This document shows positions 2,790-41,236 of a stretch of DNA of 64,000 bases, in pieces. A model generated the notes under the pieces. The model searched no databases. It was not told the origin of the DNA and saw only the letters and a list, made by a program, of their open reading frames with translations. The DNA is taken from IMG/VR virus record IMGVR_UViG_3300025875_000002, positions 1 to 64,000 of that record. One strand, given 5' to 3'. The position numbers and the translations under genes were made by a program. This stretch comes from a virus. Lineage: Duplodnaviria > Heunggongvirae > Uroviricota > Caudoviricetes. Each line of letters begins with the position of its first letter. Within the stretch, counting starts at the first letter, position 1.

Positions 2790-3239
2790 ATGAAAACGTG
2801 TTCAAGATGTAAAGTAGAAAAAACAATAGACTCGTTTGGACCGTATAAGGCAGCCAAAGACGGTCTACACGTTTGGTGTCGTCCTTGCTCTAACGCTTAT
2901 CATAAGGAATACAAAGAACGCAACGTAGAGAAAGTTAATGAGTGGAGAAGAAAGACGCATCTAAAGGGAAGATATGGCATAGATCAGGCTCAATTTGATA
3001 AGATGCTATCTGATCAAAATAATAGTTGTGCCATTTGTTTTACTCGCGTTACAGAAAGCTCACGAACAGTTAATTTTTACATTGACCATGACCACGCTTG
3101 TTGTCCTGGCCATAAGAGTTGCGGAAAGTGTATAAGAGGATTGCTATGTAATTCTTGCAATACTACTCTTGGTTTTGTTAAAGATAGCGTCGAGACGCTA
3201 GAGGCTATGATAAGCTACTTAAGAAGAGGAGTCAAATGA
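2790..3239 (+). CDS. HNH endonuclease, Endonuclease VII-like family
   Basis: DHDHACCPGHKSCGKCIRGLLCNSCN signature; paralogous to 7488, 13474, 26817, 60123(-). Confidence 0.8.
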   Translation: MKTCSRCKVEKTIDSFGPYKAAKDGLHVWCRPCSNAYHKEYKERNVEKVNEWRRKTHLKGRYGIDQAQFDKMLSDQNNSCAICFTRVTESSRTVNFYIDHDHACCPGHKSCGKCIRGLLCNSCNTTLGFVKDSVETLEAMISYLRRGVK

Positions 3240-3825: not shown

Positions 3826-4365
3826 ATGACAAAAGAATTAGCTCTGCCTGAGCGTTATGATGAGATGCATCGAGTGATAACTCTGCATCTAGAAGGCCGT
3901 AATGCCTCATGGATAGCTAAGAATCTCAATATGAAGCGTGTCGATGTCTTGAATTATATTCAAGAGTTCAAAGAAATCGCCAAAAGCGATGATCTGCTTA
4001 AGGCGCGTGCGCAAGAGGTAGTTCACGAATTCGACCAGCAGCACAATCGAATCATCGCTAGTCTTTGGGAAGTACACGACGAGGCCGAACAGGCAACAGA
4101 TGGCTTGAAGATTCGTGCAACAGCACTAAAGTCACTTTCAGATATCTCCGCTAAGCGTGTGGAAGTATTGCAAAAGTCAGGACTTCTTTCTGATGCCGCT
4201 CTTGGCGATGAAATGGCAGAGCTAGAAGATCGTCAAGAGAAACTCATTGCTATTTTACGTGAGGTTACGGCTGATTGTAACCATTGCAAGTTTGAAGTGG
4301 CTCGCCGCCTGTCAGACGTTGACGGCAAGGTCGTTCCAGTAAGAGTGGAGGCCGAGCGTGAGTAG
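3826..4365 (+). CDS. putative terminase small subunit / DNA-binding protein
   Basis: Immediately upstream of and overlapping terminase large subunit; HTH-like N-terminal region; coiled-coil C-terminus. Confidence 0.35.
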   Translation: MTKELALPERYDEMHRVITLHLEGRNASWIAKNLNMKRVDVLNYIQEFKEIAKSDDLLKARAQEVVHEFDQQHNRIIASLWEVHDEAEQATDGLKIRATALKSLSDISAKRVEVLQKSGLLSDAALGDEMAELEDRQEKLIAILREVTADCNHCKFEVARRLSDVDGKVVPVRVEAERE

Positions 4366-6190
4366 ATTTGATGACTTTTTGTCTGTACTTGATGATTCTG
4401 AATTTGAAGAAATCCCGGTTGACATTGACACGTTCGTTGAAGACGAGCGTTTTCTTGGCAAGCGCAAGATGAAGCTTTCGCCGGTACAGCGTGAGTGTCT
4501 ACTTATGATGACACAGATTTATCGTAAGGACACACTAGACTCCTACCTAAGTGCAGAAGATGCACAGAAGCGATGGAACACTCTAAAGAACGAAATTATC
4601 CTACAGCTAGGCAAGGGTAGTGGTAAGGACGAAATGAGTGCTATGGCTATTGCCTACATTGTTTATCAGCTATTGTGTCTAAAGGACCCAGCCGCATACT
4701 ACAACAAGCCAGCCGGTGACAACATTGACATTATCAATGTTGCTATTAACGCCGAGCAGGCTTCTAACGTTTTCTTCAAGAAGTTCAGCAACTTCATTAC
4801 TGTTTCACCTTGGTTTGAGGATAAGTATGAGGCCAAGGCAGACCGCTCACCAATGAAGTCTAACCAGTTCAATTTTAACAAGAACGTTAACGTTTACTCC
4901 GGCCACTCTGAGCGTGAGGCTTGGGAAGGCTACAACCTTTTTGCAGCCGTACTTGACGAGATTGCCGCCTTCGCGCTAGAGTCAGCATCAACTCAGGGAA
5001 AGACCGCTGAGGCCGTCTGGAAGATGTATAGAGCTTCTGTCACCAGTCGTTTTGCAGAGTTCGGAAAGGTAATCAGTCTTTCCTTCCCCCGTTACAAGGG
5101 TGACTTCATCACTCAGCGTTACGATAAGGTCATTGCGTCAAAGCAGGTTGTCAAGCGCCGGGAAGTCTTGAAGATCGTTGAAGACTTGCCTGACGGAATC
5201 GCCGGTAATGAACTAGTGCTCGAATGGGACGAAGACCATATTGATGCATACACACAGCGGAAGGTTTACGCACTGCGCAGACCACCCTGGGATGTTAACC
5301 CTATTGCTCGCATTGAGCATTATGTATCTGACTTCGTTGACGACTATGCTGACTGCATGGGTCGTTACTGCTGCATGCCACCCGAGGCTGTTGACGCATT
5401 CTTCAAGGATCGTGACAGAATTGAGCAGGCATTCTCAGGTCAAGTAATTTCAAACGCAGTGGACAATGAAACTGGTGCGTGGACTGACGCTTGCGAACCG
5501 GACTCATCTAAGATATACTTTGTCCACGTTGACCTTGCACAAAAGCACGACCGTTGTGCAGTGTCTTTGGCCCACGTAGAAAAGTGGGAGAGGCGTCAAA
5601 TTAGTAACATAGGTAAGCTAGAGGGACCGGCGCCGGTTGTTTACGTGGACGCTATCCGTTACTGGCAGCCTACCAAGCAGAAAGAAGTTGACTTCGATAA
5701 GGTACGGGACTACATTGTATCTCTACAGCAGAGAGGCTATAATTTAAGACTAGTTACCTTCGACCAGTGGCGCAGTGAGGACATGAGAAAGTACCTTGCC
5801 AGCATCGGTATTCGTACTGACCTTCTTTCAGTTAAGAAGGAGCAGTACGTTGACTTTGCCGTTGTTCTCAACTCGGGCCGGTTGCACGGACCACTAGAAC
5901 CTCTTATTAGAGAGGAACTACTAGGACTAAGACTCTTCCCTAACGGAAAGATCGACCACCCAAGGCAGGGGTATAAGGACCTTTCCGACGCAACGGCTGG
6001 TGCTATCTTCAATGCAATTCGAAGAACTCCTCGGTCGGCAGACACAGAAATTGAAGTAAAGACAGTTAAAGACGTAAGAAAGGTTGCACGGAACGAACTA
6101 CCCAAGAAGACTGGTGTTATTGCTGCTCCTAAGAAGCAAATGCCACCGGAGCTTAAGGCTTTTCTAGAGAGTGTTCCAAGAATAATATGA
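4358..6190 (+). CDS. terL: terminase large subunit
   Basis: 610 aa; Walker A-like GKGSGKD, Walker B-like VLDEIAAF, C-terminal RNaseH-like nuclease motifs (VHVDLAQKHD). Confidence 0.7.
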   Translation: MSRFDDFLSVLDDSEFEEIPVDIDTFVEDERFLGKRKMKLSPVQRECLLMMTQIYRKDTLDSYLSAEDAQKRWNTLKNEIILQLGKGSGKDEMSAMAIAYIVYQLLCLKDPAAYYNKPAGDNIDIINVAINAEQASNVFFKKFSNFITVSPWFEDKYEAKADRSPMKSNQFNFNKNVNVYSGHSEREAWEGYNLFAAVLDEIAAFALESASTQGKTAEAVWKMYRASVTSRFAEFGKVISLSFPRYKGDFITQRYDKVIASKQVVKRREVLKIVEDLPDGIAGNELVLEWDEDHIDAYTQRKVYALRRPPWDVNPIARIEHYVSDFVDDYADCMGRYCCMPPEAVDAFFKDRDRIEQAFSGQVISNAVDNETGAWTDACEPDSSKIYFVHVDLAQKHDRCAVSLAHVEKWERRQISNIGKLEGPAPVVYVDAIRYWQPTKQKEVDFDKVRDYIVSLQQRGYNLRLVTFDQWRSEDMRKYLASIGIRTDLLSVKKEQYVDFAVVLNSGRLHGPLEPLIREELLGLRLFPNGKIDHPRQGYKDLSDATAGAIFNAIRRTPRSADTEIEVKTVKDVRKVARNELPKKTGVIAAPKKQMPPELKAFLESVPRII

Positions 6191-6417
6191 CAGACGATTG
6201 CAAGTGCGTGGAGCGGCACGTCCCACTGCCCACCCACTACAGGTCTTTACAAGTCGGCGGCGAGGTGGTAAGCTTGTGCCCTACAACGTACGAGAACATC
6301 AGGGACCTGTTGATGAGCTTTCAGGTTCATGATACAGTTCCGCCAGGCAAGATTACGAAGCATTACTCAAAGTTTGTTCGTGAGATTTGTTTGCGGTTGT
6401 GGAAAGAGTCTCAGTAG
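6187..6417 (+). CDS. hypothetical Cys-rich small protein
   Basis: ORF track; overlaps terL stop. Confidence 0.3.
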   Translation: MTDDCKCVERHVPLPTHYRSLQVGGEVVSLCPTTYENIRDLLMSFQVHDTVPPGKITKHYSKFVREICLRLWKESQ

Positions 6418-6432
6418 TGGTATAATTACAAC

Positions 6433-6933
6433 ATGACTTGTAACGATGCTAAATGTGATAGCCCTGCCGAAAGGCGGGGCTATTGCCTTAAGCACTACAT
6501 GCATTTTTACAGGTACGGTGCAAATTACGCTGATGTGCCTGCTTGCCGTGACTGTGGCAACCCTACAGGAAGTGATAAAAGGGTAAAGCGGTACTGTGAT
6601 GATTGTGCTATAATTAGAATTAGACAGGATCGGATCAGGGCAAACAACCGTCGCCGGTCACGGTCAGGCAAGGGTGATCACTACACGATCCAGATTCTTC
6701 TTGACTTGGACGGTCAGACGTGCTATCTTTGTGGCACAACGTTGACGGAGAGCCCGTCGATAGATCATGTAATTGCTCTGTCTCTCGGTGGGACAGATAC
6801 AGTAGACAATGTAGCACTTACCCATTGGGAGTGCAATAATCGAAAGAAGGCTAAGAATTTAGATGATACACGCTTAGAGTTTCCACACATGGCAATTCCT
6901 AGCAGAATTAGGGGTGAATTAAGATGCGAATGA
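6433..6933 (+). CDS. HNH endonuclease
   Basis: N-terminal zinc-ribbon cysteines; DHVIALSLGGTDTVDNVALTHWECNNRK HNH core. Confidence 0.75.
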   Translation: MTCNDAKCDSPAERRGYCLKHYMHFYRYGANYADVPACRDCGNPTGSDKRVKRYCDDCAIIRIRQDRIRANNRRRSRSGKGDHYTIQILLDLDGQTCYLCGTTLTESPSIDHVIALSLGGTDTVDNVALTHWECNNRKKAKNLDDTRLEFPHMAIPSRIRGELRCE

Positions 6934-7448
6934 CAATGGATATGACGAAGGCTGAGATTTTTGCCTTCCTAGCGGAACGAGACGGTTACAGGTGCACCTT
7001 CCCAGGTTGCGTCCGTCCTCTTGGTGACCCTAACGACATTGACACACTTGACCACATTTACCCTCAGTTTCTTGCTAAGCAGGCGGGTTGGACTAGGGCT
7101 GAAATTGATGCCTTGGACAACCTACAGATTCAGCACAAGCGGTGTAACGCTATCAAGGGTCACCAGCTTCCGGACGAAAACGGTAACTTCATTGTTCCCG
7201 TTCGTGAGCCTAAGCCCGTGCGTGGTCCGCGTCCTGAGATTTGTGACACGTGTTACAACGGTCGAATCTTGTTCATCGGTGAAGTTTGTCCAGACTGTGA
7301 GTCTGGACCGCAGCCTGCTGCTGCGCCCTCTGCATACAAGAAGACTCCTAAGGAGTGCAGCCACAGCGGTTTCGATCACTGCTGGATGTGCTACCTTGGT
7401 TTTGTTGAGCGTGGCTCTGCCTTGCAGAATTTGATTACTGGCACCTAG
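6924..7448 (+). CDS. HNH endonuclease
   Basis: LDHIYPQF...LQIQHKRCNAIKG HNH core; C-terminal CxxC pairs. Confidence 0.65.
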   Translation: MRMTMDMTKAEIFAFLAERDGYRCTFPGCVRPLGDPNDIDTLDHIYPQFLAKQAGWTRAEIDALDNLQIQHKRCNAIKGHQLPDENGNFIVPVREPKPVRGPRPEICDTCYNGRILFIGEVCPDCESGPQPAAAPSAYKKTPKECSHSGFDHCWMCYLGFVERGSALQNLITGT

Positions 7449-7487
7449 GAAGTGCGACCATAATGCGACCAGTGCTATAATGATCGC

Positions 7488-8105
7488 ATGGCAAATAAAA
7501 ATTGGTCAGAGGACGGCAGGGTGTGTAGGGATTGTAAGGTGTTTCAATCATTAGATCACTTTAATATTCGAAAGAATGGTATTCCTTACACGCTCTGCCG
7601 TCCTTGCCAGACGGCAGACAATAAGAAGAGAGCCGCCCGGAGAACTGTGTTGTCTCCAGACAGCATTAGAGTTTGTAGTGAATGTTTCTTGGAGAAAAGC
7701 ATTTTGGAGTTTCCAAAGAACAAAAATAGCGCTGGTGGGTATTTAAATCTTTGCAAGCCCTGTAATGCTAAGAAAAACTCGATTGCTAAGTGGGGTGTAG
7801 ATGTTACACAATATAGTTATTGTGTGATTTGCAAGGAAACGCTTGTTCCTGGTAGGGGAACCGTAGTTGATCACGACCATAACTGTTGCCCGGGACAAAA
7901 GTCTTGTGGAAGCTGTGTTCGTGGTGTACTGTGTAATCGTTGCAATGTTGGGCTAGGCATGTTTAAAGATAGCCCAGCCTTGCTCATTCAGGCTGCAACA
8001 TATGTATCCGAAACTTTGGGCAGTCGCATAGGATTACGCAGTGGTAAAGATGGTGGCCCCATTTTTCCATACAGGGCCAACTGGAACCTTGACAGCGAGG
8101 ACTAG
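7488..8105 (+). CDS. HNH endonuclease, Endonuclease VII-like with N-terminal Zn-ribbon repeats
   Basis: DHDHNCCPGQKSCGSCVRGVLCNRCNVGLG signature. Confidence 0.8.
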   Translation: MANKNWSEDGRVCRDCKVFQSLDHFNIRKNGIPYTLCRPCQTADNKKRAARRTVLSPDSIRVCSECFLEKSILEFPKNKNSAGGYLNLCKPCNAKKNSIAKWGVDVTQYSYCVICKETLVPGRGTVVDHDHNCCPGQKSCGSCVRGVLCNRCNVGLGMFKDSPALLIQAATYVSETLGSRIGLRSGKDGGPIFPYRANWNLDSED

Positions 8106-8153
8106 AGGGTGTACACTGATGGCATGAACGGAGCCGACACCTAGGAGCTAGAT

Positions 8154-8600
8154 ATGACGACGACCATTGACAACTTTACTGGTCAATACGACTTTCTTTC
8201 TAATTTCTATGCCCGTCCCTTTGAGTGGGAAGGCGAGACTTGGAGAACGTCGGAGCACGCTTTCAACGCAGCGAAAACATTACTACCCGGAGAACGCATT
8301 TGGGTGCGTGATGCAAAGACGCCCGGTGAAGCGAAGCGTCGTGGTCGTGTAGTTACATTGCGTAATGATTGGGATAAGCACTGGCGGTACGTGCTGATGT
8401 ATGATATCGTTCGTACCAAGTTCAGTGATCCTGTCATGCAGGATATGCTTGCGTCAACTCACGATTCCATCCTTGTCGAAGGTAATACTTGGCATGATGG
8501 TTTATGGGGAGTTTGTCGCTGTGCGACCTGCCCGCCCGGCAGGAATTGTTTGGGCATTTTGCTTATGCAAATTCGTTTTGACATAGTAAGAGGCATATAG
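8154..8600 (+). CDS. NADAR (YbiA/DUF1768) family protein
   Basis: Hallmark motifs FLSNFY, WRTSEHAFNAAK, LGILLMQIR match YbiA-like NADAR domain. Confidence 0.75.
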   Translation: MTTTIDNFTGQYDFLSNFYARPFEWEGETWRTSEHAFNAAKTLLPGERIWVRDAKTPGEAKRRGRVVTLRNDWDKHWRYVLMYDIVRTKFSDPVMQDMLASTHDSILVEGNTWHDGLWGVCRCATCPPGRNCLGILLMQIRFDIVRGI

Positions 8601-8704
8601 ATCATCTCCGTTAAAGGAGGTGGTTGCAGTGTAGACTTAGGTATGATAGACTGAATAACATCAGGGAAGTCCTGGGGGTGGGGACTATAATTACCACTCC
8701 ACCA

Positions 8705-8778
8705 TGCAGGCGTAGCTTAGTGGCCTAAAGCTCCCCTCTCTAAAAGGGGGATCGTGAGTTCGACTCTCACCGCCCGCA
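8705..8778 (+). tRNA. tRNA with anticodon CUA (amber-reading suppressor-type); amino acid identity undetermined
   Basis: Clean cloverleaf: acceptor GCAGGCG, D GCTT/AAGC, anticodon stem CCCCT/AGGGG, loop CTCTAAA (U33, A37), T arm GTGAG-TTCGACT-CTCAC, short variable arm. Confidence 0.5.
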
Positions 8779-8779
8779 C

Positions 8780-9136
8780 ATGGTATGGAATGGTTCATTT
8801 TCACCAAACTTGCTAAAGCGTAAGCTGGATGTAAGTCTAGTGTCATGGTCCGCCGGTGAAGTGGACGATGCTCTTTTAGAAGAAATCGATCCAGATTCAG
8901 ACGGTTCAGAAGGAACATTAACTGTGTACTTCACCCCCGGTGGAAAAGAATACAGTTGGTATTGCACTTATGAGAAGTATCAAGAGTTTGAGGCAATGAA
9001 AACGCTCCGATTGAATATGTCGGTGATTGAGGTTGGCCTTACGGTAGAACGGCCCAAACCGGCTGGGCCGCTCCTAAGGGTTGACAACGAAAGTAAGACC
9101 TGCTACAATATGAGTATACATTCTCCCAGAGTGTGA
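8780..9136 (+). CDS. hypothetical protein
   Basis: ORF track. Confidence 0.3.
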   Translation: MVWNGSFSPNLLKRKLDVSLVSWSAGEVDDALLEEIDPDSDGSEGTLTVYFTPGGKEYSWYCTYEKYQEFEAMKTLRLNMSVIEVGLTVERPKPAGPLLRVDNESKTCYNMSIHSPRV

Positions 9137-9432
9137 TGGCAGCACAAAAGATTCTGAATCTTTTAGATGTGGATCGAAACCATGTGGGAGAGCTTGCCTT
9201 CGGGTAAAATTGTAAAATAGGAGGTGCTACATATGGCTAGAGGTAAGGGTAGGTACACACCAAAGCTTAACCAGGCAACAGCCGGTTGGCTTCGTGATAA
9301 GACCAACACAGCTGCTCGCAACGTTGTCGGTAAGTTCAAGTCTCAGTGATCCTAGCGGATTACGCACTTGACAGACAATAGTAGCATCTGATAAGCTGTC
9401 CTGGGACATTGACTTGAAACTGTCCCTCCAAT

Positions 9433-9754: not shown

Positions 9755-9825
9755 GTGGGTGTCGTATAGTGGTAAGACGTATGGTTTGGGTCCATATGAC
9801 GTCGGTTCGATTCCGGCCACCCGCA
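9755..9825 (+). tRNA. tRNA-Pro(UGG)
   Basis: Acceptor GTGGGTG/CACCCGC, anticodon stem TATGG/CCATA loop TTTGGGT, T arm GTCGG-TTCGATT-CCGGC. Confidence 0.55.
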
Positions 9826-9874
9826 CGTTCAAACTATGTTTGCGTTTTGAACAGATGTTTATTACAGTTAATGT

Positions 9875-10291
9875 ATGAAAACATGTTCGATGTGTAAGTT
9901 AGAAAAGCCCTTCGATGCATTCGCTAAGGCAACAGGAACAAAAGATTTGTTGCAGCGTGGATGCAAAGATTGTAAGGCAGCGCAGTACAAGGCCAATAGT
10001 GGTAAGTATAAGGCGGGATCGAAAGAGGCAAGGGCGCGCAGGGCTGCTAAGCTAGCAGAACTAAAGTCTGCGCCTTGCACTGACTGCGGTGTTCAATATC
10101 CTTCGTATGTGATGCAATATGATCATATTGGTTTGGACAAGACAGCCCATGTATCATACTTAATGTCAAGAGTTTCTTGGTCTGTAATCTTGGAAGAGAT
10201 TGCAAAGTGTGAGCTTGTGTGTGCGAATTGTCATGCTGAAAGATCACATCAAAGAGCAAAAGATTTAATCGGGAACGAGGAAGATGGTTAA
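9875..10291 (+). CDS. HNH endonuclease (family with 19706..20008 and frameshifted 28775..29282)
   Basis: CTDCGVQYPSYVMQYDHIG...AKCELVCANCH motif; N-terminal Cys pairs. Confidence 0.7.
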   Translation: MKTCSMCKLEKPFDAFAKATGTKDLLQRGCKDCKAAQYKANSGKYKAGSKEARARRAAKLAELKSAPCTDCGVQYPSYVMQYDHIGLDKTAHVSYLMSRVSWSVILEEIAKCELVCANCHAERSHQRAKDLIGNEEDG

Positions 10292-10420
10292 TCCGTCTGA
10301 TTTGGGATCAGAAAAAACGGGGTTCGACTCCCCGGTTCCCGACGCTGGGTAGTCTAGGTTCGAATCCTAGCGCGTCGTAGAATCTAGGAGGTTGCAAACT
10401 TCTAGGGGAAGATAGATGGT
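10292..10420 (+). other. tRNA-like fragments (anticodon-arm + T-arm piece; acceptor/T-arm minihelix CGACGC...GCGTCG)
   Basis: GGGGTTCGACTCCCC and TAGGTTCGAATCCTA T-arm motifs without full cloverleaf directly after HNH stop. Confidence 0.3.
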
Positions 10421-10433
10421 CTAGAACATCTAT

Positions 10434-10613
10434 GAGGCATGTAGTTTAATGGCAGAACAGCCCGGGTCTACTTTGCGGAATCGCGCGGTTTCGTAAGATC
10501 CCTCTAAATGCACATGAGGCTAAATAAGGTGCAGCCTGGGGCAGTATACCCTCACCCTGATAAGGTGTTGAAAGGTTAGCTGGTACCACGTTGGTTCAAA
10601 TCCAACCTGCCTC
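10434..10613 (+). tRNA. tRNA-like gene with ~110-nt internal insertion (interrupted tRNA or pseudo-tRNA)
   Basis: Canonical 5 prime half GAGGCAT-GTAGTTTAATGGCAGAACA and canonical 3 prime GTTGG-TTCAAAT-CCAAC-CTGCCTC-A whose acceptor strands pair; second alternative 5 prime acceptor GGGGCAG at 10528 also pairs with same 3 prime strand. Confidence 0.35.
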
Positions 10614-10665
10614 ACGCAAATCCCTAGGGACTAATCGTAACAAACTCGACTAGTTAGGACGTGCA

Positions 10666-10971
10666 TTGAAGGTAGCTAGTAAGTTGTGGGATCAACTCCC
10701 GAAGTTCATTCATGGTAACAAGACGGTTCGTGCCAAGATCAATAGTGACTCAGGCACGCCGGTACAGTTAACTTATGATGGTGCTCCTGATTGGAAGGAC
10801 ACCGAGATTACCAAGGCGAATATGATCACGTCAAAGATTGACGATGATGACTTCTTCTTTTCCGGTGACGCCCACCGTCCAATTCTTGACATTGATTATG
10901 AAGCTCAGCTAGTGCCTAGTTCAACACCTGGGCACTATCACCTTTCTGAGAGACTTGCAAGACAAGCTTGA
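10666..10971 (+). CDS. hypothetical protein
   Basis: ORF track. Confidence 0.3.
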   Translation: MKVASKLWDQLPKFIHGNKTVRAKINSDSGTPVQLTYDGAPDWKDTEITKANMITSKIDDDDFFFSGDAHRPILDIDYEAQLVPSSTPGHYHLSERLARQA

Positions 10972-11035
10972 CTTGCTCGACGAATGGTGATAGAATATAG
11001 TTAGTTGCGGGGCAGGCGAAATCCTGCCCCCTCAT

Positions 11036-11107
11036 GGGCGCGTAGTTCAGCGGTAGAACAATCGGTTTACACCCGATACGTCGTGGGTTCGATCCCCACC
11101 GTCGCCT
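11036..11107 (+). tRNA. tRNA-Val(UAC), acceptor stem imperfect
   Basis: D arm TAGTTCAGCGGTAGAACA, anticodon stem ATCGG/CCGAT loop TTTACAC, T arm GTGGG-TTCGATC-CCCAC; two acceptor mismatches; preceded by hairpin GGGGCAGG...CCTGCCCC. Confidence 0.4.
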
Positions 11108-11109
11108 AC

Positions 11110-11205
11110 GCACGGTTGAAGAACGGTTCGAATCCGTCTCGTAGTGTAATGGTAGCACGCAGCCTTAAGGTAAGTGCAGGTTCGAATCCTGTCCGGTCCA
11201 CTTTG
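11110..11205 (+). other. degenerate tRNA-like element(s)
   Basis: Two T-arm motifs (ACGG-TTCGAAT-CCGT; GCAGG-TTCGAAT-CCTGT) and a D-arm-like GTAGTGTAATGGTAGCAC but no complete cloverleaf; loop CTTAAGG would give anticodon UAA if real. Confidence 0.25.
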
Positions 11206-11237
11206 GGCCGGTAGTCTAATTGGTAGGACAACCGTAT

Positions 11238-11310
11238 GGGAGAGCAGCACGCTGGTAGGTGCAAGTGGCTTATATCCTCTCGACAGTGGGTTCGATTCCC
11301 ACCTCTCCTA
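11238..11310 (+). tRNA. tRNA-Ile(UAU)-like
   Basis: Acceptor GGGAGAG/CTCTCCT, D GCAC/GTGC, anticodon loop CTTATAT, T arm GTGGG-TTCGATT-CCCAC; preceded by an orphan 5 prime tRNA-half-like segment (GGGCCGGTAGTCTAATTGGTAGGAC). Confidence 0.45.
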
Positions 11311-11311
11311 C

Positions 11312-11701
11312 ATGGCAAAAACTGGTAAGGTAAAGATAGATATTGAGTTCAACCAACCGGCCCCGGAAGGGAGGCAAATTAAGTCACGTTCGGTAAGATA
11401 CTCTAAGTATTATGATGATAAGGGTAAACTATCTAACGAAGACTGGACAGAAGAAGTAACTTTTGAAGATGCTCCGGAAGAAACGGTGAAATCAGCTGAC
11501 CCAAAAGTAGTATCAAACAACTGGAAAGTGGTTGGTCATACTAATGACCCACCCTACTTTAACTTTGTGCCAGATGACGAAGCTGTCAACTATGCAACCG
11601 GTGGTTATGTAGATGGGCACATGAACCATGTTCATTTTGAACCGCTAGATGCTACAAAGCCTGACTTGAAAAAGTCTGATCCCGACGAAATAGAATTCTG
11701 A
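11312..11701 (+). CDS. hypothetical protein (start trimmed to ATG after tRNA)
   Basis: ORF track frame; ATG at 11312 immediately after tRNA 3 prime end. Confidence 0.4.
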   Translation: MAKTGKVKIDIEFNQPAPEGRQIKSRSVRYSKYYDDKGKLSNEDWTEEVTFEDAPEETVKSADPKVVSNNWKVVGHTNDPPYFNFVPDDEAVNYATGGYVDGHMNHVHFEPLDATKPDLKKSDPDEIEF

Positions 11702-11708
11702 GGGAATC

Positions 11709-11797
11709 TGGAAGTACAAGCCGAATGCTGGCCGACGGCATCGCACTTGAAATGCGACGAGGATAAAACCCTTGTGGGTTCGAACCCCACTGCTTCC
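11709..11797 (+). tRNA. tRNA-Ser(UGA), class II long variable arm
   Basis: Acceptor GGAAGTA/TGCTTCC, anticodon stem TCGCA/TGCGA loop CTTGAAA, long variable arm, T arm GTGGG-TTCGAAC-CCCAC. Confidence 0.6.
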
Positions 11798-11850
11798 GCA
11801 TTAAACCCTATTCATCAGAGTGGGGTCCCTTACTAAAGAAGGGAGGGCAA

Positions 11851-12135
11851 ATGAATCTGCTAGTTTGGTTCAGTATCGATAATGGAGAAATTGGTCGCAT
11901 TGTCAAGATGACTGCAATTGATCCTAAGATCGATTTGGACAAGCACTTTGCCAAGTGGTCGGTCAAGTCTGAGCACAGGCAGGCCAACGTATACACCTTC
12001 ACTAGAGAGCACATTGCTGTTCCTGAGCGCATCATGGCCGGTCGCGTTGAAGGTAATGCTCTTATTATGCATTACAATGGAGAGCGCCATAGAGCAATTT
12101 TGCCCTACTTTGTTACGATAGGAGAATTAGAATGA
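11851..12135 (+). CDS. hypothetical protein
   Basis: ORF track; RBS-like GAAGGGAGGG upstream. Confidence 0.35.
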   Translation: MNLLVWFSIDNGEIGRIVKMTAIDPKIDLDKHFAKWSVKSEHRQANVYTFTREHIAVPERIMAGRVEGNALIMHYNGERHRAILPYFVTIGELE

Positions 12136-12371
12136 CTTGGAAGGACAGAATGAATGCGGGCATCGGAGAGTATCTTCGGAGCATAGGGGTTGACGCGATT
12201 GAGGTCACCGGCTACAATGAAGAAGTAGACGTCTACTCCTGGGGTGGATGCGAGACTTGCGGTCCTGAGAAGGACTTTGAGTTGAGCATTTACTACAAGG
12301 ACAGCACTGGTAAGTCAAGGACTTACACGTATGCCAACACGTTCACTGAGTTCCTGAACAACATTACGTAA
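12132..12371 (+). CDS. hypothetical protein
   Basis: ORF track; overlapping start-stop ATGA. Confidence 0.35.
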   Translation: MTWKDRMNAGIGEYLRSIGVDAIEVTGYNEEVDVYSWGGCETCGPEKDFELSIYYKDSTGKSRTYTYANTFTEFLNNIT

Positions 12372-15423: not shown

Positions 15424-15504
15424 GGGTCTAACGCCAAACGGTCAGGCATTGGATTGTGACTCCATGAGTATATCCCACAGAGGGTTCGACTCCCTCTAGA
15501 CCCT
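15424..15504 (+). tRNA. tRNA-like, 81 nt, possible anticodon GUG (His?) with extended variable region
   Basis: Perfect acceptor GGGTCTA/TAGACCC, T arm GAGGG-TTCGACT-CCCTC; internal arms noncanonical. Confidence 0.35.
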
Positions 15505-19705: not shown

Positions 19706-20008
19706 ATGACGGAGTTCGCCGGTGTTGTGACAAAGAAAGACAAACGGCGAACTTCCCGTAAGTTGATAATCCAACTTAAAACAGGACGATCTTGCATAGA
19801 CTGCAAGGAATTTTACCCGCATTACATGATGGACTTTGACCACGTGCGAGGCATCAAAATCGGAAACATTTACGATCTGGCAAAAACCGGAGATATAGCT
19901 AAGCTCTTAGCAGAAGTTGCTAAGTGCGATTTGGTGTGCTCAAACTGCCATAGACACCGTACGTTCATGAGAGCGGCGGGGGTTGACAGGAAGGCAAAGA
20001 GCAGCTAG
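19706..20008 (+). CDS. HNH endonuclease (start trimmed to ATG downstream of tRNAs)
   Basis: CIDCKEFYPHYMMDFDHVRG...AKCDLVCSNCH; paralog of 9875..10291. Confidence 0.65.
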   Translation: MTEFAGVVTKKDKRRTSRKLIIQLKTGRSCIDCKEFYPHYMMDFDHVRGIKIGNIYDLAKTGDIAKLLAEVAKCDLVCSNCHRHRTFMRAAGVDRKAKSS

Positions 20009-24416: not shown

Positions 24417-25469
<1,053 letters not shown>

Positions 25470-27159: not shown

Positions 27160-27900
27160 AGTAAATGAGGTATGGCTCAATAAGCTATGGTGACATAGTG
27201 AAAGGCAGACTGGTTGTCTGTCGCCCAGCAATGGGTAGTCCATACAAAGCATTGGTCGTTGAGCAATCGGACACCCCGGTTGCAGCGATGTGAGCGTCCC
27301 AGGCGAATGGTCGAATGACTGTAGCCACCCGGCAGGGTAAGACGGGGTTCTACGTAAGCATCACGTTCGATAATGCGAGGAAAGATAGTCCGAGACCGCA
27401 ATCAAGGGCGCTTTCCATGAAGGTTAAGTAGCTGGACCGGCAGGTTCGTGAAAGACTAGAGATTTGAGTAGCCCCGCAAGGCGAAAGATATTGAGGCGTG
27501 TAGTATTCTTAGGCTCAAAAGGTCTCGGAACTACGCGGAGAAGCACGTCTCTCACCACATACCCACCCCGGTTAGGGGACTGTATATTGGAATACAAATT
27601 CAAATAAGCAAAAGACTTCTCCTGTCGTAAAGCAAAAGTGCCTTAATGGCTGACCTTCGGGAATCAGCCCACCTAAAAGCTCGCAAGGCCAAGGGTGTTC
27701 GTGTACAAGTAGTGCAGTGAAGGGGTTTAGCGGCCCTTACACGAATCGAAAGTAGCGGAGTAGCTCTACGTCATGAAGAGTGATCAGCTATACTGATCAG
27801 GCACGGCAGGTCCGGTAGGGATACCGGGGAAAGGTTGGGAAACAATAATCCAACTAAAGCCTGTCACGGGAGGGTGAATTCTAAGCCCTCCCAAATTTTA
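27160..27900 (+). ncRNA. large ORF-free, highly structured RNA candidate (~740 nt); identity unresolved (GOLLD/ROOL-like phage RNA or degenerate ribozyme-like element)
   Basis: No credible ORF on either strand; many hairpins incl. GNRA/UUCG-type loops; long-range complementarity AGTCCGAGACC (27387-97) with GGTCTCGGAACT (27521-32); flanked by tRNAs. Confidence 0.4.
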
Positions 27901-27975: not shown

Positions 27976-28083
27976 CTAGCGCGGATGGAGAAAAGGTGTC
28001 TCGCCAGCCTCATAAGCTGGAAATCAGGCTGGTCGGAGCAGCCCCGCGCTCCCACGTATTGGAACAACAGAAAGGCAATCCTA

Positions 28084-29765: not shown

Positions 29766-30073
29766 AGGGGCTGAAATGGTATCGACCTCTGAAAAGAAAT
29801 AATGTACGCAGCCCGTCTTTGAGGTAGAGACGTTAAACGACTTCAAAAATAATAAATGCAGACTACGATGTAGTTGCAGAGGCTGAGGCAATTCTTGCCG
29901 AGGCTTCTCTAATTTCTGCCTAATCGCGGATTGAGGGGCAACTCCTTAGAAACAGAAAGTTGCAACGCAATACCCCGCACTGCCAAGTAAGACCCGCCGG
30001 GGTTACGGAATGGCTGTAATAATGATATTATGGAAGATCAGAGGGACAGGGGTTCAAATCCCCTCAGCTCCAC
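29766..30073 (+). ncRNA. ssrA: tmRNA (ssrA)
   Basis: 5 prime GGGGCTGAAATGGTATCGAC resembles tmRNA 5 prime end; 3 prime GGACAGGGGTTCAAATCCCCTCAGCTCCA resembles tmRNA tRNA-like 3 prime end; internal tag frame GCA GAC TAC ... GCC TAA preceded by A-rich tract. Confidence 0.6.
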
Positions 30074-30101
30074 ATAGCAGTAAAGTACAGAAGGGCTATC
30101 C

Positions 30102-33422: not shown

Positions 33423-33658
33423 TCGTAGTTCAGTGGGGGTTCGACTCCTCATGCGGCCGCAATTCTCCGGGAAGGCTGAACTAGCAATGGGCGTTAAGTG
33501 TCAAGGGTTGCACGTCGGTGTTGCATACCGAAAGATAGGGTTCAACTCCCTCACTGTCCACACCTAGAGGAAACCAGGGACGCTTGGTGAAATCGAAAGT
33601 CAGCCGGATGGAGGCTGAGAGCATAAGGAGACCTAATGGTTGGTCCCACCATCGCAAT

Positions 33659-33731
33659 GGGGAATTAGCTCATTTGGGAGAGCGCTTCGCTTGCAACGAA
33701 GAGGTAACGAGTTCGATCCTCGTATTCTCCA
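33659..33731 (+). tRNA. tRNA-Ala(UGC)
   Basis: Acceptor GGGGAAT/ATTCTCC, D GCTC/GAGC, anticodon stem CTTCG/CGAAG loop CTTGCAA, T arm ACGAG-TTCGATC-CTCGT. Confidence 0.7.
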
Positions 33732-33732
33732 C

Positions 33733-34359
33733 GTGAAAGTTTGCTATAAATGCAAAGAAGAAAAGCCAGCTACGGCACAATTTTTCTATAGGGATAAATC
33801 AAGAAAAGATGGTTTGACTCCACGATGTAGGGACTGCATATATGCCAAGAAAGAAACTGGTCCTCGCAGATGGGATGAAAAGCCTGACCGCATCCGATGC
33901 TTGGCTTGTAAAGAAGAATATGATTACACATCAGAAAACTTCTACGTAGATAAAGACTATAAGTTTGGCCTACAAACTACACGATGTAAGCTTTGCAAGG
34001 ATAAAGCTTCTGCTCAATGGAGAGTTGATAATAGAGAGTATGACCTAGAAAGACAAAAAGAAAAGTCTAGACTCTGGCGTCAAAATAATCCAGAAAAAGC
34101 TAGAGCAAAATGGCAATTACGAAAGGCCCGCAAGAAATCAAATGGTGCTTATGAGTATGTTGACTACATTACTGTAGCGGAACGAGATAGATGGGTTTGT
34201 CAAATTTGTCAGGAAGAAGTTGATCCTGAAATAAAACATCCCGATAGGCAGTCTGGATCGTTAGATCATGTCGTGCCACTTTCAAAGGGTGGTGCTCATA
34301 CTTATGATAACACACAGCTTGCCCATCTCTTTTGTAACATGAAGAAAAGCAACAAATAG
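33733..34359 (+). CDS. HNH endonuclease (GTG start directly after tRNA-Ala)
   Basis: Multiple N-terminal CxxC pairs; DHVVPLSKGGAHTYDNTQLAHLFCNMKKSN HNH core. Confidence 0.65.
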   Translation: MKVCYKCKEEKPATAQFFYRDKSRKDGLTPRCRDCIYAKKETGPRRWDEKPDRIRCLACKEEYDYTSENFYVDKDYKFGLQTTRCKLCKDKASAQWRVDNREYDLERQKEKSRLWRQNNPEKARAKWQLRKARKKSNGAYEYVDYITVAERDRWVCQICQEEVDPEIKHPDRQSGSLDHVVPLSKGGAHTYDNTQLAHLFCNMKKSNK

Positions 34360-34621: not shown

Positions 34622-35137
34622 GTGTTGCTATTAATATGGTATGATTTCAACATGAGATCATCACCATTACATGACGAGGACAGACTAAGAAAGCTTTGCG
34701 CAGAATCATACTCCATTAAGGAGGTTCTTGACAAGCTTGGACTCAGGGCTGCCGGTGGCAATTACAAGCAGTTAAAAATGTATGCAGAAAAATTTGGCAT
34801 CACCCTGCCCCAGCAGGACGCCCAGCATCTTCAAAGAAAGACTGAGGGTGCAAGGCAGGCTAGAAAAGTTTCAGATGAGCTTGTGTTCTGTGCCGAGTCA
34901 GAGTATACTAACAGGTACCAAATCAAGCGTCGGTTGAGAGCTATGGGATGGAAATGGATTTGCTCAACTGATGGGTGTGGCGTAAGCGAAGAGTGGTTGG
35001 GCAAGCCAATGTCTCTTCAACTTGACCACATTAACGGAATCCATAACGATAACAGAATAGAAAATCTTCGTTTGTTGTGTCCTAATTGTCACTCGCAAAC
35101 AGAAACATTCGCTGGCCGTAAAGGCTGGCTAATCTGA
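34622..35137 (+). CDS. HNH endonuclease (family with 39311..39789)
   Basis: LQLDHINGIHNDNRIENLRLLCPNCHSQTE. Confidence 0.65.
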   Translation: MLLLIWYDFNMRSSPLHDEDRLRKLCAESYSIKEVLDKLGLRAAGGNYKQLKMYAEKFGITLPQQDAQHLQRKTEGARQARKVSDELVFCAESEYTNRYQIKRRLRAMGWKWICSTDGCGVSEEWLGKPMSLQLDHINGIHNDNRIENLRLLCPNCHSQTETFAGRKGWLI

Positions 35138-35739: not shown

Positions 35740-36184
35740 GAGTCTTATTAAAAACATTAGGTTTGGTCTAGCTACCAACTCTAGTTCTAGCCACTCTCTT
35801 GTTTACCGTAAGACCCCCGGTGATGACACCGTTTGGGAGAGCGGTAGCATGTATGATACAGAGTATGGTTGGAACCACTTTGTACTAGACAGCCTTGGTG
35901 AGAAGTTAATGTATGCCCTTACCGGTGCACTGGGTAGCCAGCATTGGTGGAGTGATGACATTGATGAGGCTGAGATTGATCGTCTCATGGCAGAGTATGG
36001 CCCAATGTTCCCTGAGCTAAACCGCAGCCACTTTGAGCAGGCTCTTCGTGGTTACATTGATCATGAGTCTCAGGGTCTTGCTGATGTTGCAGTGGCACGT
36101 GATCCTCACGTTGAGATTCACGGCGGTAACGATAATGGCGACAGCGGTTGCTCTGACTGCTCTTCCGGAGACTATTACTACTGA
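35732..36184 (+). CDS. hypothetical acidic protein
   Basis: ORF track. Confidence 0.35.
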   Translation: MIKSLIKNIRFGLATNSSSSHSLVYRKTPGDDTVWESGSMYDTEYGWNHFVLDSLGEKLMYALTGALGSQHWWSDDIDEAEIDRLMAEYGPMFPELNRSHFEQALRGYIDHESQGLADVAVARDPHVEIHGGNDNGDSGCSDCSSGDYYY

Positions 36185-36194
36185 TAGGGGTACC

Positions 36195-37067
36195 ATGATT
36201 AAGGTGCGGCGTGACAAGAACGCAGTTGTTCTATTCAATCAGGTGACGGGTCATAAGATCCGTCTCGCCATTGGTAACTACACCAAGGCAAAGCGTCCGG
36301 AGCTAGTCGATATCAAGATTACTGACTACTGCCCTTTCGCTTGCACCTTTTGCTATCAGGACTCCACCTTGCAGGGTGAGCATGCATACAATGTGAGCAT
36401 GGGCCTTATCATTGAGCGTCTTGCCAAGGCTAAGGTATTTGAGGTGGCGCTTGGTGGTGGAGAGCCAACCGATCATCCGGCGTTTATTCAGATTCTTCGT
36501 GACTTCCGTGCTGCTGGCATTGTGCCTAACTTCACCACCAAGTCTCTCGGCTGGGTTAAGCGTAATTGGACTAAGATCGAAGACGTTGTTGGTGCTTTTG
36601 CATACTCTGCTGAGACTGTTAAGGATCTAGAAAGCGCAGATAAAATGTTTGCTGAGATTCCTCGGGATCGAATTAACATTCACTACGTCATGGGTCTACA
36701 GGACAAGGCCGGTTTCGTAAGTTTTATGAAGCGTGCAAGTGAGCTTGGGTTCCGTGTTACTCTTCTAGGATACAAGACTACTGGTCGTGGTAAGGACGTT
36801 ATTCCTGAGCCTTATGACTGGTGGATTGAGGCTGTCACGGTACTTGCAGCCCTTGGAAAATGCCCCACGATGAGTATTGACACGCCGCTTGCAGAGCAGT
36901 ATGATGGTATCATGCCAGTAAGCAGCCAGGTTTACCACACCCGCGAGGGTTTCGTAAGCATGTACATTGATGCGGTGTCTATGCAGATGGGCGCTTCTAG
37001 CTTCGATGCGGCGGTTGAGTTGGTTCCCTTTGACGACAAGTGGCTTGACCGCTACAAGAGTATTTAG
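36195..37067 (+). CDS. radical SAM enzyme
   Basis: CPFACTFCYQ (CxxxCxxC), glycine-rich ALGGGEPT motif; start at ATG 36195. Confidence 0.6.
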   Translation: MIKVRRDKNAVVLFNQVTGHKIRLAIGNYTKAKRPELVDIKITDYCPFACTFCYQDSTLQGEHAYNVSMGLIIERLAKAKVFEVALGGGEPTDHPAFIQILRDFRAAGIVPNFTTKSLGWVKRNWTKIEDVVGAFAYSAETVKDLESADKMFAEIPRDRINIHYVMGLQDKAGFVSFMKRASELGFRVTLLGYKTTGRGKDVIPEPYDWWIEAVTVLAALGKCPTMSIDTPLAEQYDGIMPVSSQVYHTREGFVSMYIDAVSMQMGASSFDAAVELVPFDDKWLDRYKSI

Positions 37068-39199: not shown

Positions 39200-39271
39200 G
39201 CGTGCGTAGGCCATCGGCGAGCCGCCAGATTTAGGTTCTGGTGTATGTGGGTTCGACTCCCATCGCACGTA
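39200..39271 (+). tRNA. tRNA with anticodon UAG but class I (short variable arm) architecture
   Basis: Acceptor GCGTGCG/CGCACGT, D GGCC/AGCC, anticodon stem CCAGA/TCTGG loop TTTAGGT, variable TGTAT, T arm GTGGG-TTCGACT-CCCAT. Confidence 0.5.
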
Positions 39272-39310
39272 CGCTTGACTTTGGTAGGCTAGCTTGCTAT
39301 AATCATAGCA

Positions 39311-39789
39311 TGACTTCCAGAGTAGGATATAAGCATAAGTATACAGAAGAAATGTTGCGTGATGCTGTTACCAATTCATTTTCTTTAGCTAATGTGTTGA
39401 GAATATTAAACATTCCACAAGCGGGTGGAAATCAAACTCACATTAGAAAGAGAATTAATTTCTTCGGTATCGACACTACGCATTTTACAGGCGCAGTTCA
39501 CAACAAAGGAAAGCCTGCTAGAAATAGACTTAGCTTAGAAGAAATATTAATTGTCCTACCAGCAGGATCGGCTAGACCAAAGCGCAAACAGCTAAAGCGA
39601 GCAATGTTAGAGTCAGGCTTGCTATACCAGTGCCGATGTGGTAACCTTGGTAAGTGGCAGGGCAAGGAGCTTTGCTTAGAAATTGATCACATAAATGGTG
39701 ACTGGCTGGACAATAGATTAGAAAATCTTAGGTTTCTCTGCCCTAACTGTCATAGTCAAGAGCCGACTAGTCACAGACAAAAGAAATAA
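39311..39789 (+). CDS. HNH endonuclease
   Basis: LEIDHINGDWLDNRLENLRFLCPNCHSQE; start ATG after tRNA. Confidence 0.7.
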
Positions 39790-39924: not shown

Positions 39925-39997
39925 GCCTACATAGTCCAACGGTAGAGACAAACGGCTTAGACCCGTTGTGTTGGGGGTTCGAATCCCTCTGTAGGCA
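39925..39997 (+). tRNA. second class-I-architecture tRNA with anticodon UAG
   Basis: Perfect acceptor GCCTACA/TGTAGGC, D GTCC/AGAC-type, anticodon stem AACGG/CCGTT loop CTTAGAC, variable GTGTT, T arm GGGGG-TTCGAAT-CCCTC. Confidence 0.5.
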
Positions 39998-40161
39998 CCG
40001 AGCGGTAGTGTAAGTGCGTATAAAGCGTTCGATTTCAGGCACCCTGGGGACGGCAATCCTAACAGAGTTTGCGGGTCGTTCGAAAAACGTAGCCTCTTTG
40101 CCGAGGGGAAGCACACTGGACGTTAATCCAGTAGTGAGGTATCAAATCCTCCCAATCGACT

Positions 40162-40288: not shown

Positions 40289-40981
40289 ATGAGAATACTT
40301 GACCTCTATTGCGTAGCTGGTGGGGCCGGTAAAGGCTACCATGACGCCGGTTTTGAAGTAGTAGGCATTGACATTAAGCCACAACTCAACTACCCTTTCG
40401 CTTTCAGCCGGATGGTAGCACTAGAAGCCCTACAAATCCTTATTGACGGTGGTTCTATTATTACGACTAAGGGTCTATTTAAGTTAGAAGATTTTGATTT
40501 CATTCACGCCTCCCCACCGTGCCAGTCAAGTTCAGCCTTGACAAAGGGCACCAACTACGGTAAGTTTACTTATCCAGACCTTATCGAACCAACCCGTGAC
40601 CTACTAAAGGAGACCGGCCTTCCGTACGTTATTGAAAACGTTGCCGGTGCAGCAATCGACAAGGACATTATGCTCTGTGGAGAAATGTTCGGACTTGCCG
40701 TTATTCGTCATCGCTTCTTTGAATTGGGTGATTGGAAAGCTTATCAACTCCCACATAGGAAGCACCGAGGCCGGGTTGCCGGTATGAGGCATGGAGTTTG
40801 GTATGAAGGCCCATACTTTGCTGTATACGGAGACGGCGGTGGCAAGGGCACGGTTGCCCAATGGCAAGATGCTATGGATATACACTGGACTAACGTTCGT
40901 AAAGAGATTGCAGAGGCGATTCCGCCGCTTTATTCGAAGTACATAGGCGAGCAGCTTATGGTCTGTTTGCAAAGGGGATAG
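40289..40981 (+). CDS. DNA (cytosine-5)-methyltransferase, unusually short (230 aa)
   Basis: Motif I LDLYCVAGGAGKGY, motif IV SPPCQ, motif VI VIENV; no obvious TRD/motif IX-X region. Confidence 0.65.
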   Translation: MRILDLYCVAGGAGKGYHDAGFEVVGIDIKPQLNYPFAFSRMVALEALQILIDGGSIITTKGLFKLEDFDFIHASPPCQSSSALTKGTNYGKFTYPDLIEPTRDLLKETGLPYVIENVAGAAIDKDIMLCGEMFGLAVIRHRFFELGDWKAYQLPHRKHRGRVAGMRHGVWYEGPYFAVYGDGGGKGTVAQWQDAMDIHWTNVRKEIAEAIPPLYSKYIGEQLMVCLQRG

Positions 40982-41174
40982 TAATGGGTGTTTGGGCAGA
41001 AAATTATACTCCAAGTCATGAAGATGTTATCACAATGATCTTGCGTGACAACGTGTGGACACCAGCACAGGACTTGCCATGTGGATGCAACCCTGCTAAG
41101 CTTTGTGCAGAGCACGCAAGAATCCGGGCCGTGGAGCACTACCATCCTGAGACTATTCCAGCCCGGTTCAGGTC

Positions 41175-41204
41175 TTGACAAACTGTCGTACCCCCGTGCT
41201 ACAC
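41175..41204 (+). promoter_or_regulatory. sigma70-like promoter (TTGACA N18 TACACT) upstream of rIIA-like gene
   Basis: cTTGACAaactgtcgtacccccgtgcTACACTaa. Confidence 0.4.
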
Positions 41205-41236
41205 TAAACCTAACAAAAACAACACTAGGAGGCTTC

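Follow-up and report, generated by a model that had tools for sequence, protein, structure and literature searches.

A conserved candidate amber suppressor tRNA in the tRNA array of an actinophage that appears to keep the standard genetic code

Does a phage that carries a tRNA for the amber codon read TAG as an amino acid, or can such a tRNA be kept by a phage whose genes still end on TAG? The question is raised by a tRNA gene with the anticodon CUA that stands at the head of a tRNA array in a virus of the Caudoviricetes, in a stretch of 64,000 nucleotides referred to here as the window (positions 1 to 64,000 of IMG/VR record IMGVR_UViG_3300025875_000002). A preliminary description of this DNA, made from its letters alone, had proposed the gene as a candidate amber suppressor that would extend proteins beyond their TAG stops or allow the expression of genes with in-frame TAG. 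We consider it probable that the gene is a functional phage tRNA of the amber suppressor type, an accessory gene that heads the array and involves no change of the genetic code, and that partial read-through of UAG is its most likely benefit.

Structure of the CUA tRNA gene

ARAGORN reports a tRNA at 8706-8779 on the plus strand, the first in the window, with the anticodon cta at position 35 of the gene. Rfam family RF00005 matches 8706-8778 over its full model (1-71) with 58.5 bits (gathering score 29; E 4.5e-10 for the window), a mid-range score (15th of 35 tRNA matches) that is typical for the array. The Rfam alignment sets C-U-A on the anticodon columns of the family, the same three bases that ARAGORN picks. 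Both programs thus bear out the clean cloverleaf of the preliminary description, and its details (an A-C mismatch in the acceptor, fully paired D and anticodon stems, a U at position 33, an A at 37 and TTCGACT as the T loop) are all correct on direct reading; only its start at 8705 was one base early.

Read element by element, the gene is GCAGGCG TA GCTT AGTGGCCTA AAGC T CCCCT CTCTAAA AGGGG GATC GTGAG TTCGACT CTCAC CGCCCGC A. The acceptor stem (GCAGGCG/CGCCCGC) begins with G1-C72 and C2-G71, has A3.C70 as its sole mismatch and is followed by the discriminator A73, while the D stem (GCTT/AAGC) and the anticodon stem of 5 bp (CCCCT/AGGGG) pair perfectly, the D loop of 9 nt carries GG, the variable loop has 4 nt and the T loop is TTCGACT. 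With stems of 7/4/5/5 bp, U33, a purine at position 37, G18G19 and TTCRA, the gene has the canonical features of an elongator tRNA apart from that one mismatch. At the 3' end C74 is encoded and CCA is not, as in most tRNAs of the array. The anticodon loop reads C32 U33 C34 U35 A36 A37 A38; A36-A37-A38 is the context of tRNAs for codons that start with U, corresponds to the substrate motif of MiaA and to Yarus' extended anticodon, and favours efficient suppression, so that it fits genuine decoding of UAG. A TATAAT hexamer 14 nt 5' of the mature tRNA end is a candidate -10 element for this gene; no good -35 element was found upstream, and a consensus scan requiring both hexamers does not list the site.

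Use of TAG as a stop codon

Recoding was assessed by taking TAG as a sense codon and then checking homologue alignments for any that span it. No genuine case was found in the 71.3 kb of the window's phage that were sampled or in four further loci that carry the CUA tRNA (L089, L009, L092 and L094); all apparent TAG-spanning homologies were off-frame shadows or had the TAG upstream of the true start. Two same-frame junctions in the window were rejected as well: at 6187-6417/6433-6933 the downstream HNH gene is complete by itself, and at 34364-34546/34622-35137 the HNH gene is complete and the upstream open reading frame (ORF) is not called as a gene. As a stand-in for the late genes of the window's phage, we read the first 61.7 kb of IMGVR_UViG_3300049003_000001, a relative that also has the CUA tRNA. 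This stand-in is 93% coding under code 11, and the stretch read, in which genes for head, tail, replication and packaging are included, shows no gene with in-frame TAG: those for the portal C-terminus, protease, capsid, four paralogous head fibres, connector, replication proteins and terminase are uninterrupted in the standard code, and a tape measure of 1912 amino acids (aa) and tail proteins of 1086 aa and 822 aa are intact.

TAG stops are likewise in regular use. Public gene calls, which cover most of the first 71.3 kb, end on TGA in 59, on TAA in 49 and on TAG in 17 of 125 cases, and our own ORF model of the window gives 64, 45 and 20, respectively. The three TAG stops that had been singled out beforehand (7446-7448, 8103-8105 and 20006-20008) are all real, and TAG also closes clearly conserved genes, namely a radical SAM gene (end 37067) and the gene at 40289-40981. 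The share of TAG among stops is 15.3% in phages with the CUA tRNA versus 16.7% in relatives without it, and the two groups do not differ in the lengths of read-through extensions or in back-up stops. The preliminary description had itself named a lack of in-frame-TAG genes and of TAG-stop avoidance as what would tell against it, and by that yardstick its recoding half largely fails.

Three further patterns of TAG usage turned out to be independent of the tRNA. In the stand-in relative, 10 of 87 genes and none of the 25 late genes end on TAG, which was rejected as a suppressor footprint because the late genes of phage Peebs, a cultured relative that lacks the CUA tRNA, are alike (1 of 24). Directly beside the tRNA, at 3826-8600 (+), TAG closes 4 of 6 called genes versus 13 of 119 elsewhere (Fisher p = 0.003), and a tie to the tRNA was rejected since identical stops occur in the closest sister (L087/L088), which lacks it. 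The TAG stop of the 174-aa HNH-like gene is found in 6 of 6 phages with the CUA tRNA, yet 6 of 15 others, Peebs among them, have it as well. Reading TAG as sense raises coding density from 0.821 to 0.845 in the window's phage, a gain no larger than that from reading either of the other two stops as sense. In the stand-in relative the density goes from 0.930 to 0.938, and TGA or TAA as sense lowers it there. No release factor or aminoacyl-tRNA synthetase gene is present among the Pfam-marked gene calls. Taken together, the window's phage and its CUA-bearing relatives seem to have undergone no change of the genetic code, and TAG appears to serve them as an ordinary stop.

Conservation of the CUA tRNA

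Among metagenomic loci fetched via their terminase, whose identity to the window's terminase is given in Table 1, the CUA tRNA is present in eight besides the window and hence in nine diverged lineages. Its slot lies 1-4 kb downstream of the terminase block in every one of them, where the gene heads the array or comes right after two tRNA-Pro genes and is usually placed directly before tRNA-Gln(CUG). Within the window's own clade it is retained in 6 of 7 lineages checked. CUA anticodons are rare in this phage family, with 9 seen overall and 6 among the 533 tRNAs in 3.7 Mb of related loci, which contain no UUA or UCA anticodon. The CUA tRNA is not a chance match.

Six copies entered a structural alignment by cloverleaf position, and three later copies were compared afterwards. 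In the six-copy alignment, 123 of 126 stem cells are paired, compensatory double changes occur in 17 of 21 pairs, and pairwise identity is only 45-69%; copies other than that of the window have stem mismatches at other places. G1-C72, C2-G71, A73 and the loop Y32-U33-C-U-A-A37-A38 are invariant, and the three later copies share them. The case for selection does not hinge on covariation, since any set of tRNAs shows it, but on the combination of a rare anticodon, a fixed syntenic slot and an acceptor end that is invariant over deep divergence, a pattern that argues for selection on what would be a working UAG decoder. The earlier proposal of a candidate amber suppressor is made stronger by the CUA anticodon, the A36-A37-A38 context and a cloverleaf kept in nine lineages, and its recoding consequences find no support wherever these can be tested.

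In CUA-lacking relatives the slot holds no tRNA at all, so the CUA tRNA is an extra gene and not a mutated sense tRNA. A neighbour-joining tree of terminases, which predates the addition of L270, L271 and L272, includes six CUA-bearing phages and divides them between two clades that are neighbours and also contain scattered members without the CUA tRNA; in the clade of Peebs the tRNA is missing altogether. The most economical reading is a working UAG-decoding tRNA that a clade of standard-code actinophages retains as an accessory gene and that some lineages can do without.

Amino acid identity and origin

All CUA tRNAs combine G1-C72, C2-G71 and A73, whereas 24 of 25 distinct Gln tRNA sequences of the family have U1-A72 and G73. 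The combination is also absent from the family's Trp (G73) and Glu (G1.U72) tRNAs, and among its other tRNAs occurs most often in those for Met(CAU), Arg(UCU), Leu(UAG) and Lys. Two isotype classifiers, a nearest-neighbour method (leave-one-out 277 of 325) and a position-specific naive Bayes model (356 of 417), each reach about 85% on sense tRNAs; neither ever places Gln among the top classes for the CUA tRNAs. Their calls were rejected as a basis for identity because they are inconsistent. Leucyl-tRNA synthetase ignores the anticodon and needs A73, while lysyl-tRNA synthetase recognises U35 together with A73, and in E. coli class I tRNAs with CUA are often captured by it, in line with the bacterial amber suppressor literature, in which class I CUA tRNAs with A73 tend towards charging by this enzyme. 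Leu or Lys are therefore our best guesses for the inserted amino acid from these identity rules, and Gln or Trp seem unlikely. Ala was excluded by the lack of G3.U70, and Ser and Tyr by the lack of a long variable arm.

The gene has no evident parent. A blastn search of the CUA tRNA against phages gave weak matches only (E at least 0.2), several of them to tRNA-Lys and none significant, and no paralogous parent was found among the tRNAs of the window and Peebs. An origin from Arg(UCU) via deletion of one nucleotide in the loop is unsupported.

Proposed function and alternative explanations

If the CUA tRNA works as an amber suppressor, it would be transcribed on the plus strand together with the array and processed by host RNase P and, since CCA is not encoded, by the CCA-adding enzyme. 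The invariance of G1-C72, C2-G71 and A73 leads us to propose charging by a synthetase of the host for which the acceptor end is the main recognition site, after which the tRNA would compete with release factor 1 at UAG. Given that there is no sign of a code change and no in-frame TAG in the genes read, the benefit would most likely be partial UAG read-through, with its targets in host genes or in a few phage genes outside the sample; read-through of host UAG stops, extended phage isoforms and one TAG-gated gene of the lysis region are all candidates. UAG makes up a substantial minority of the stops of high-GC actinobacteria. It is conceivable, though we rate it as rather unlikely, that a suppressor inserting an amino acid other than Gln serves the whole clade as an infection tool, be it through read-through of host stops for take-over or shut-off, through stage-specific isoforms or through a single TAG-gated lysis gene. 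If true, this would be a use of suppressors distinct from the recoding model of gut phages.

Several points weigh against a functional suppressor that acts by partial read-through. Some 62 kb of the window's phage, about 47% of its genome and including the lysis cassette, lie outside the sample, as do the lysis genes of every CUA-bearing phage. An active suppressor might deplete TAG stops or favour back-up stops, and neither is seen. The classifier calls for the CUA tRNAs scatter over Arg, Ile, Lys, Gly, Leu, Thr and Met. The closest sister, with a terminase 85% identical to that of the window, has lost the gene, and none of the five cultured relatives checked (Peebs, Gilson, Wakanda, Ankus and DekoNeimoidia) has a CUA tRNA. 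Among the six aligned copies, A3.C70 occurs in that of the window only, the other five pairing normally at 3:70; together with the sister's loss, this could indicate relaxed selection in the window's sub-lineage. Finally, what was observed directly is the gene, its fold, anticodon and conservation and the missing recoding footprint; expression, charging, suppression and a selective benefit are inferred.

The losses, which extend beyond the closest sister to several other lineages, and the odd acceptor pair would suit a neutral or decaying passenger: a tRNA that arose in an array of an ancestor, receives its amino acid poorly or has no activity, and survives only because it does no harm, as would the absence of any footprint on stop-codon usage and of a consistent resemblance to any isoacceptor family. 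Yet the bodies of the CUA tRNAs differ at 30-55% of positions while the whole anticodon loop, the first two acceptor pairs and the discriminator are fixed over nine lineages and stems are kept paired by compensatory changes, all of them features that would vanish from a drifting pseudogene. No degraded copy was seen, and we regard a passenger as quite unlikely. A benefit of some kind, as the conservation of the tRNA calls for, would also come from stage-specific recoding, in which the suppressor serves one or a few genes, typically of the lysis or late classes, with in-frame TAG beyond the sampled part of the genome. Such a phage would match TAG-recoded gut phages in which a suppressor times lysis, and a strong association is known between the suppressor tRNAs of phages and the recoding of genes for structure and lysis (Borges et al., bioRxiv 10.1101/2021.08.26.457843). 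Against this stand the uninterrupted late genes of the stand-in relative, the missing TAG-spanning homologies in 71 kb of the window's phage and in four other loci, TAG stops that are not depleted at a GC content that is not low (48-55%), an acceptor end that is not Gln-like and the lack of a release factor or synthetase gene among the Pfam-marked calls, and we regard stage-specific recoding as unlikely.

A role outside decoding, for instance as a decoy, sponge or substrate against host defences that target tRNAs such as anticodon nucleases, or another function at the RNA level, is speculation and very unlikely in our view. The very large tRNA set, the tmRNA and the GOLLD RNA of this phage and the enzymes of RNA repair in this group (a T4-type RNA ligase and a polynucleotide kinase/phosphatase beside the terminase in L252 and L272, and a kinase/phosphatase-like gene in the window's phage) would be in keeping with it. 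Nothing ties the CUA anticodon to a known nuclease target, however, and strict conservation of the anticodon and of A37-A38 is what decoding predicts. The chance that the gene is a pyrrolysine tRNA (tRNA-Pyl, pylT) is practically nil on structural grounds: what speaks for it is the shared CUA anticodon and the label given by ARAGORN, which uses "tRNA-Pyl" as its name for any CUA anticodon. Pyrrolysine tRNAs are hallmarked by an anticodon stem of 6 bp, a variable loop of 3 nt, a single base between acceptor and D stems, a D loop of 5 nt without G18G19 and the lack of T54-psi55-C56 (PMC1851642). All of these non-canonical features are absent from the tRNA of the window, with its 5-bp stem, 4-nt variable loop, TA spacer, 9-nt D loop with GG and TTCGACT, and no pylS or pylBCD Pfam families were found on public gene calls covering 1-11.6, 14.4-22.5 and 30.3-71.3 kb.

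Comparison with known suppressor tRNAs

With TAG-recoded phages (crAss-like, Lak and other gut phages that use code 15), the window's phage shares a CUA tRNA among its phage tRNAs, presumably charged by the host, and a host that presumably uses the standard code. These phages differ from it in their in-frame TAG in structural and lysis genes, genes that code 11 breaks into fragments, a low GC content and a shortage of TAG stops, none of which were found here, and they read TAG as Gln and sometimes encode release factor 2, whereas the acceptor end of the window's tRNA is not Gln-like. In the literature, phage CUA suppressors are tied to the recoding of TAG to Gln in gut and jumbo phages of low GC content, and it has been proposed that relatives which combine a suppressor with the standard code are in transition (Borges et al., bioRxiv 10.1101/2021.08.26.457843). 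The Agate clade described in the same work resembles the window's phage in having a suppressor tRNA in a standard-code phage; there, the suppressor is for TGA, TGA stops are nearly gone (4 of 146) and the situation is read as a step towards recoding. Unlike in the Agate clade, the phages described here use the target stop of their tRNA normally, their state is an old one shared by nine diverged lineages, and recoded relatives are not known.

Bacterial amber suppressors (E. coli supE, supF and supP as well as engineered tRNA(CUA) sets) have a canonical body, CUA and A37-A38 in common with the window's tRNA, but each derives from an identifiable sense tRNA through one change of its anticodon, whereas the CUA tRNAs of these phages form a family without recognisable parent. 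We found no description of suppressor tRNAs in Streptomyces phages or other actinophages in the literature searched. At present, phage suppressor tRNAs are read almost only as recoding parts in low-GC gut phages; here, a tRNA of the suppressor type has long been kept in soil or environmental actinophages for which TAG seems to be a normal stop. Should this tRNA be active, suppressor tRNAs would have a role in infection that is independent of recoding, and a suppressor in a standard-code phage could be an old and stable state, not just a brief step to recoding. Calls of "tRNA-Pyl" or "Sup" by ARAGORN in phage tRNA arrays are in themselves no evidence of an alternative code. The invariant G1-C72/C2-G71/A73 end would offer a natural amber suppressor scaffold that is testable in Streptomyces and mycobacteria.

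Phage, genomic setting and neighbouring features

The window is one end, the tRNA-rich half, of the metagenomic contig ENA ERZ27293403 k141_2035252 (133,313 bp). Identical pieces of the phage occur in JGI 3300004213 and Logan SRR6241621, no near-identical DNA is present in the phage collection, and a search of IMG/VR gave neither an exact match to the CUA tRNA nor a close terminase match. A run of 36 G at positions 1-36 lies where the source contig ends and most likely arose as an artefact of sequencing or assembly. All genes but one are on the plus strand, as are all of the 37 tRNA genes and the single transfer-messenger RNA (tmRNA) gene that ARAGORN finds; the GC content is 48%.

Judged by its proteins, the window's phage is an uncultured, distant and Stanwilliamsviridae-like relative of Streptomyces phages of clusters BE and BK, to which they are 38-54% identical (38% for rIIA and 50-54% for the terminase). 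Related terminases occur in 136 isolate phages, of which 127 infect Streptomyces and 9 Rhodococcus, and the WhiB, Lsr2-like and Rpf-like domains encoded by the window's phage also point to an actinobacterial host. Its arrangement of a Cas4-like nuclease, terminase, HNH gene, tRNA array, tmRNA and rIIA/B is common to Peebs. The arrays of the BE/BK phages Peebs, Gilson, Wakanda and Ankus have the same architecture, with Gln, Gly, Trp and Pro tRNAs, tmRNA and rIIA/B; a CUA tRNA is not annotated in the five isolates checked either. With Peebs as a guide, the terminal region would lie in the part of the contig beyond the window, along with the genes for lysis, head, tail and replication.

Table 1. 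Features at the CUA tRNA locus of the window and relatives that carry the CUA tRNA
Feature	Position	Strand	Basis or remark
Large terminase	4358-6190	+	Pfam marks on public gene calls
HNH gene	6433-6933	+	Pfam marks on public gene calls
174-aa HNH-like gene	6924-7448	+	Pfam marks on public gene calls
EndoVII-like gene	7488-8105	+	Pfam marks on public gene calls
NADAR gene	8154-8600	+	Pfam marks on public gene calls
Intergenic motif (GTAGACTTAGGTAT...CAGGGAAGTCCTGGG)	8631-8676	+	Comparison of window 8590-8790 with L087 13320-13500
TATAAT hexamer (candidate -10 element)	8686-8691	+	Seen in sequence, 14 nt 5' of mature tRNA end
tRNA gene, anticodon CUA, class I	8706-8778	+	ARAGORN, Rfam RF00005, direct sequence reading
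Anticodon 5'-CTA-3'	8740-8742	+	Within 7-nt loop CTCTAAA (8738-8744)
118-aa ORF	8780-9136	+	ORF list and public gene call
tRNA-Gln (CUG)	9122-9193	+	Next array gene; acceptor end U1-A72, G73, unlike the CUA tRNA
L270, CUA tRNA present			Terminase 72% identical to window's
L089, CUA tRNA present			Terminase 66% identical to window's
L271, CUA tRNA present			Terminase 64% identical to window's
L272, CUA tRNA present			Terminase 58% identical to window's
L252, CUA tRNA present			Terminase 57% identical to window's
L092, CUA tRNA present			Terminase 55% identical to window's
L094, CUA tRNA present			Terminase 54% identical to window's
L009, CUA tRNA present			Terminase 52% identical to window's

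The block from the terminase to the NADAR gene (4358-8600, +) anchors the tRNA slot across relatives and is syntenic with Peebs, L087, L089, L252, L270, L271 and L272. Downstream of it lies an intergenic motif that is common to the window and the closest sister and has no second copy elsewhere in the window; the two genomes diverge directly after it, and we take it to be the left border of a cassette swap. Downstream of CAGGGAAGTCCTGGG, the CUA tRNA and the 118-aa ORF of the window are exchanged for a 372-aa ORF in the sister (window 8600-9122 versus L087 13333-14874), which carries its own promoter-like site (TTGACA/TAGTCT) and shows no similarity to the 118-aa ORF. The latter begins directly after the tRNA and extends with its 3' end into the first bases of tRNA-Gln. 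Inside this 3' end lies a near-consensus promoter-like site of the sigma-70 type (TTGACA-17-TACAAT, 9081-9109, +; 11 of 12 consensus matches and a TG extension), 13 nt upstream of tRNA-Gln(CUG).

The array further contains a full-length GOLLD RNA at 27491-27888 (+; Rfam RF02032, 203.5 bits, E 5.6e-56) directly upstream of a tRNA-Met (27978-28054), and a tmRNA at 29767-30075 (+) with the tag peptide ADYDVVAEAEAILAEASLISA; the tmRNAs of Ankus and DekoNeimoidia have a different tag, ANNIDAEYEALCAEY(S/A)LVTV. Rfam alone finds tRNA-like matches of 30-45 bits, missed by ARAGORN, at 10538-10614, 11135-11200, 11711-11797, 15424-15504 and 33489-33560 (+). The one at 15424-15504 abuts tRNA-Gly(GCC) in the slot of tRNA-His(GUG) in relatives and is probably an atypical tRNA-His. 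Two tRNAs with the UAG anticodon for Leu (39200-39272 and 39925-39999, +) have only 73-75 nt and no long variable arm, which is unusual for the bacterial type; similar ones are annotated as tRNA-Leu in Peebs. ORFs of the HNH/Endonuclease VII type that resemble homing endonucleases are found through the tRNA region (2790-3239, 6433-6933, 7488-8105, 33640-34359, 34652-35137, 39241-39789 and 60123-60536), the last being the sole minus-strand gene.

Auxiliary genes of the window's phage comprise a WhiB-like regulator (47561-47896), an Rpf-like transglycosylase with an M23 peptidase (24420-25469), a nicotinamide mononucleotide transporter with a NadR-like AAA_28 protein (53348-55034), a radical SAM gene (36033-37067) and rIIA/rIIB (41045-44686). 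In two of the relatives, the T4-type RNA ligase and polynucleotide kinase/phosphatase, a pair of tRNA-repair enzymes, lie between terminase and CUA tRNA (L252 12457-14474 and L272 9799-12201); in the genome of Peebs they are sited elsewhere. In the stand-in relative, four consecutive paralogous ORFs of 129, 254, 232 and 195 aa precede the connector gene (L255 1722-4233, corresponding to 9781-12292 of its contig) and have in common an N-terminal domain that resembles a head-fibre protein (PHROG 5711).

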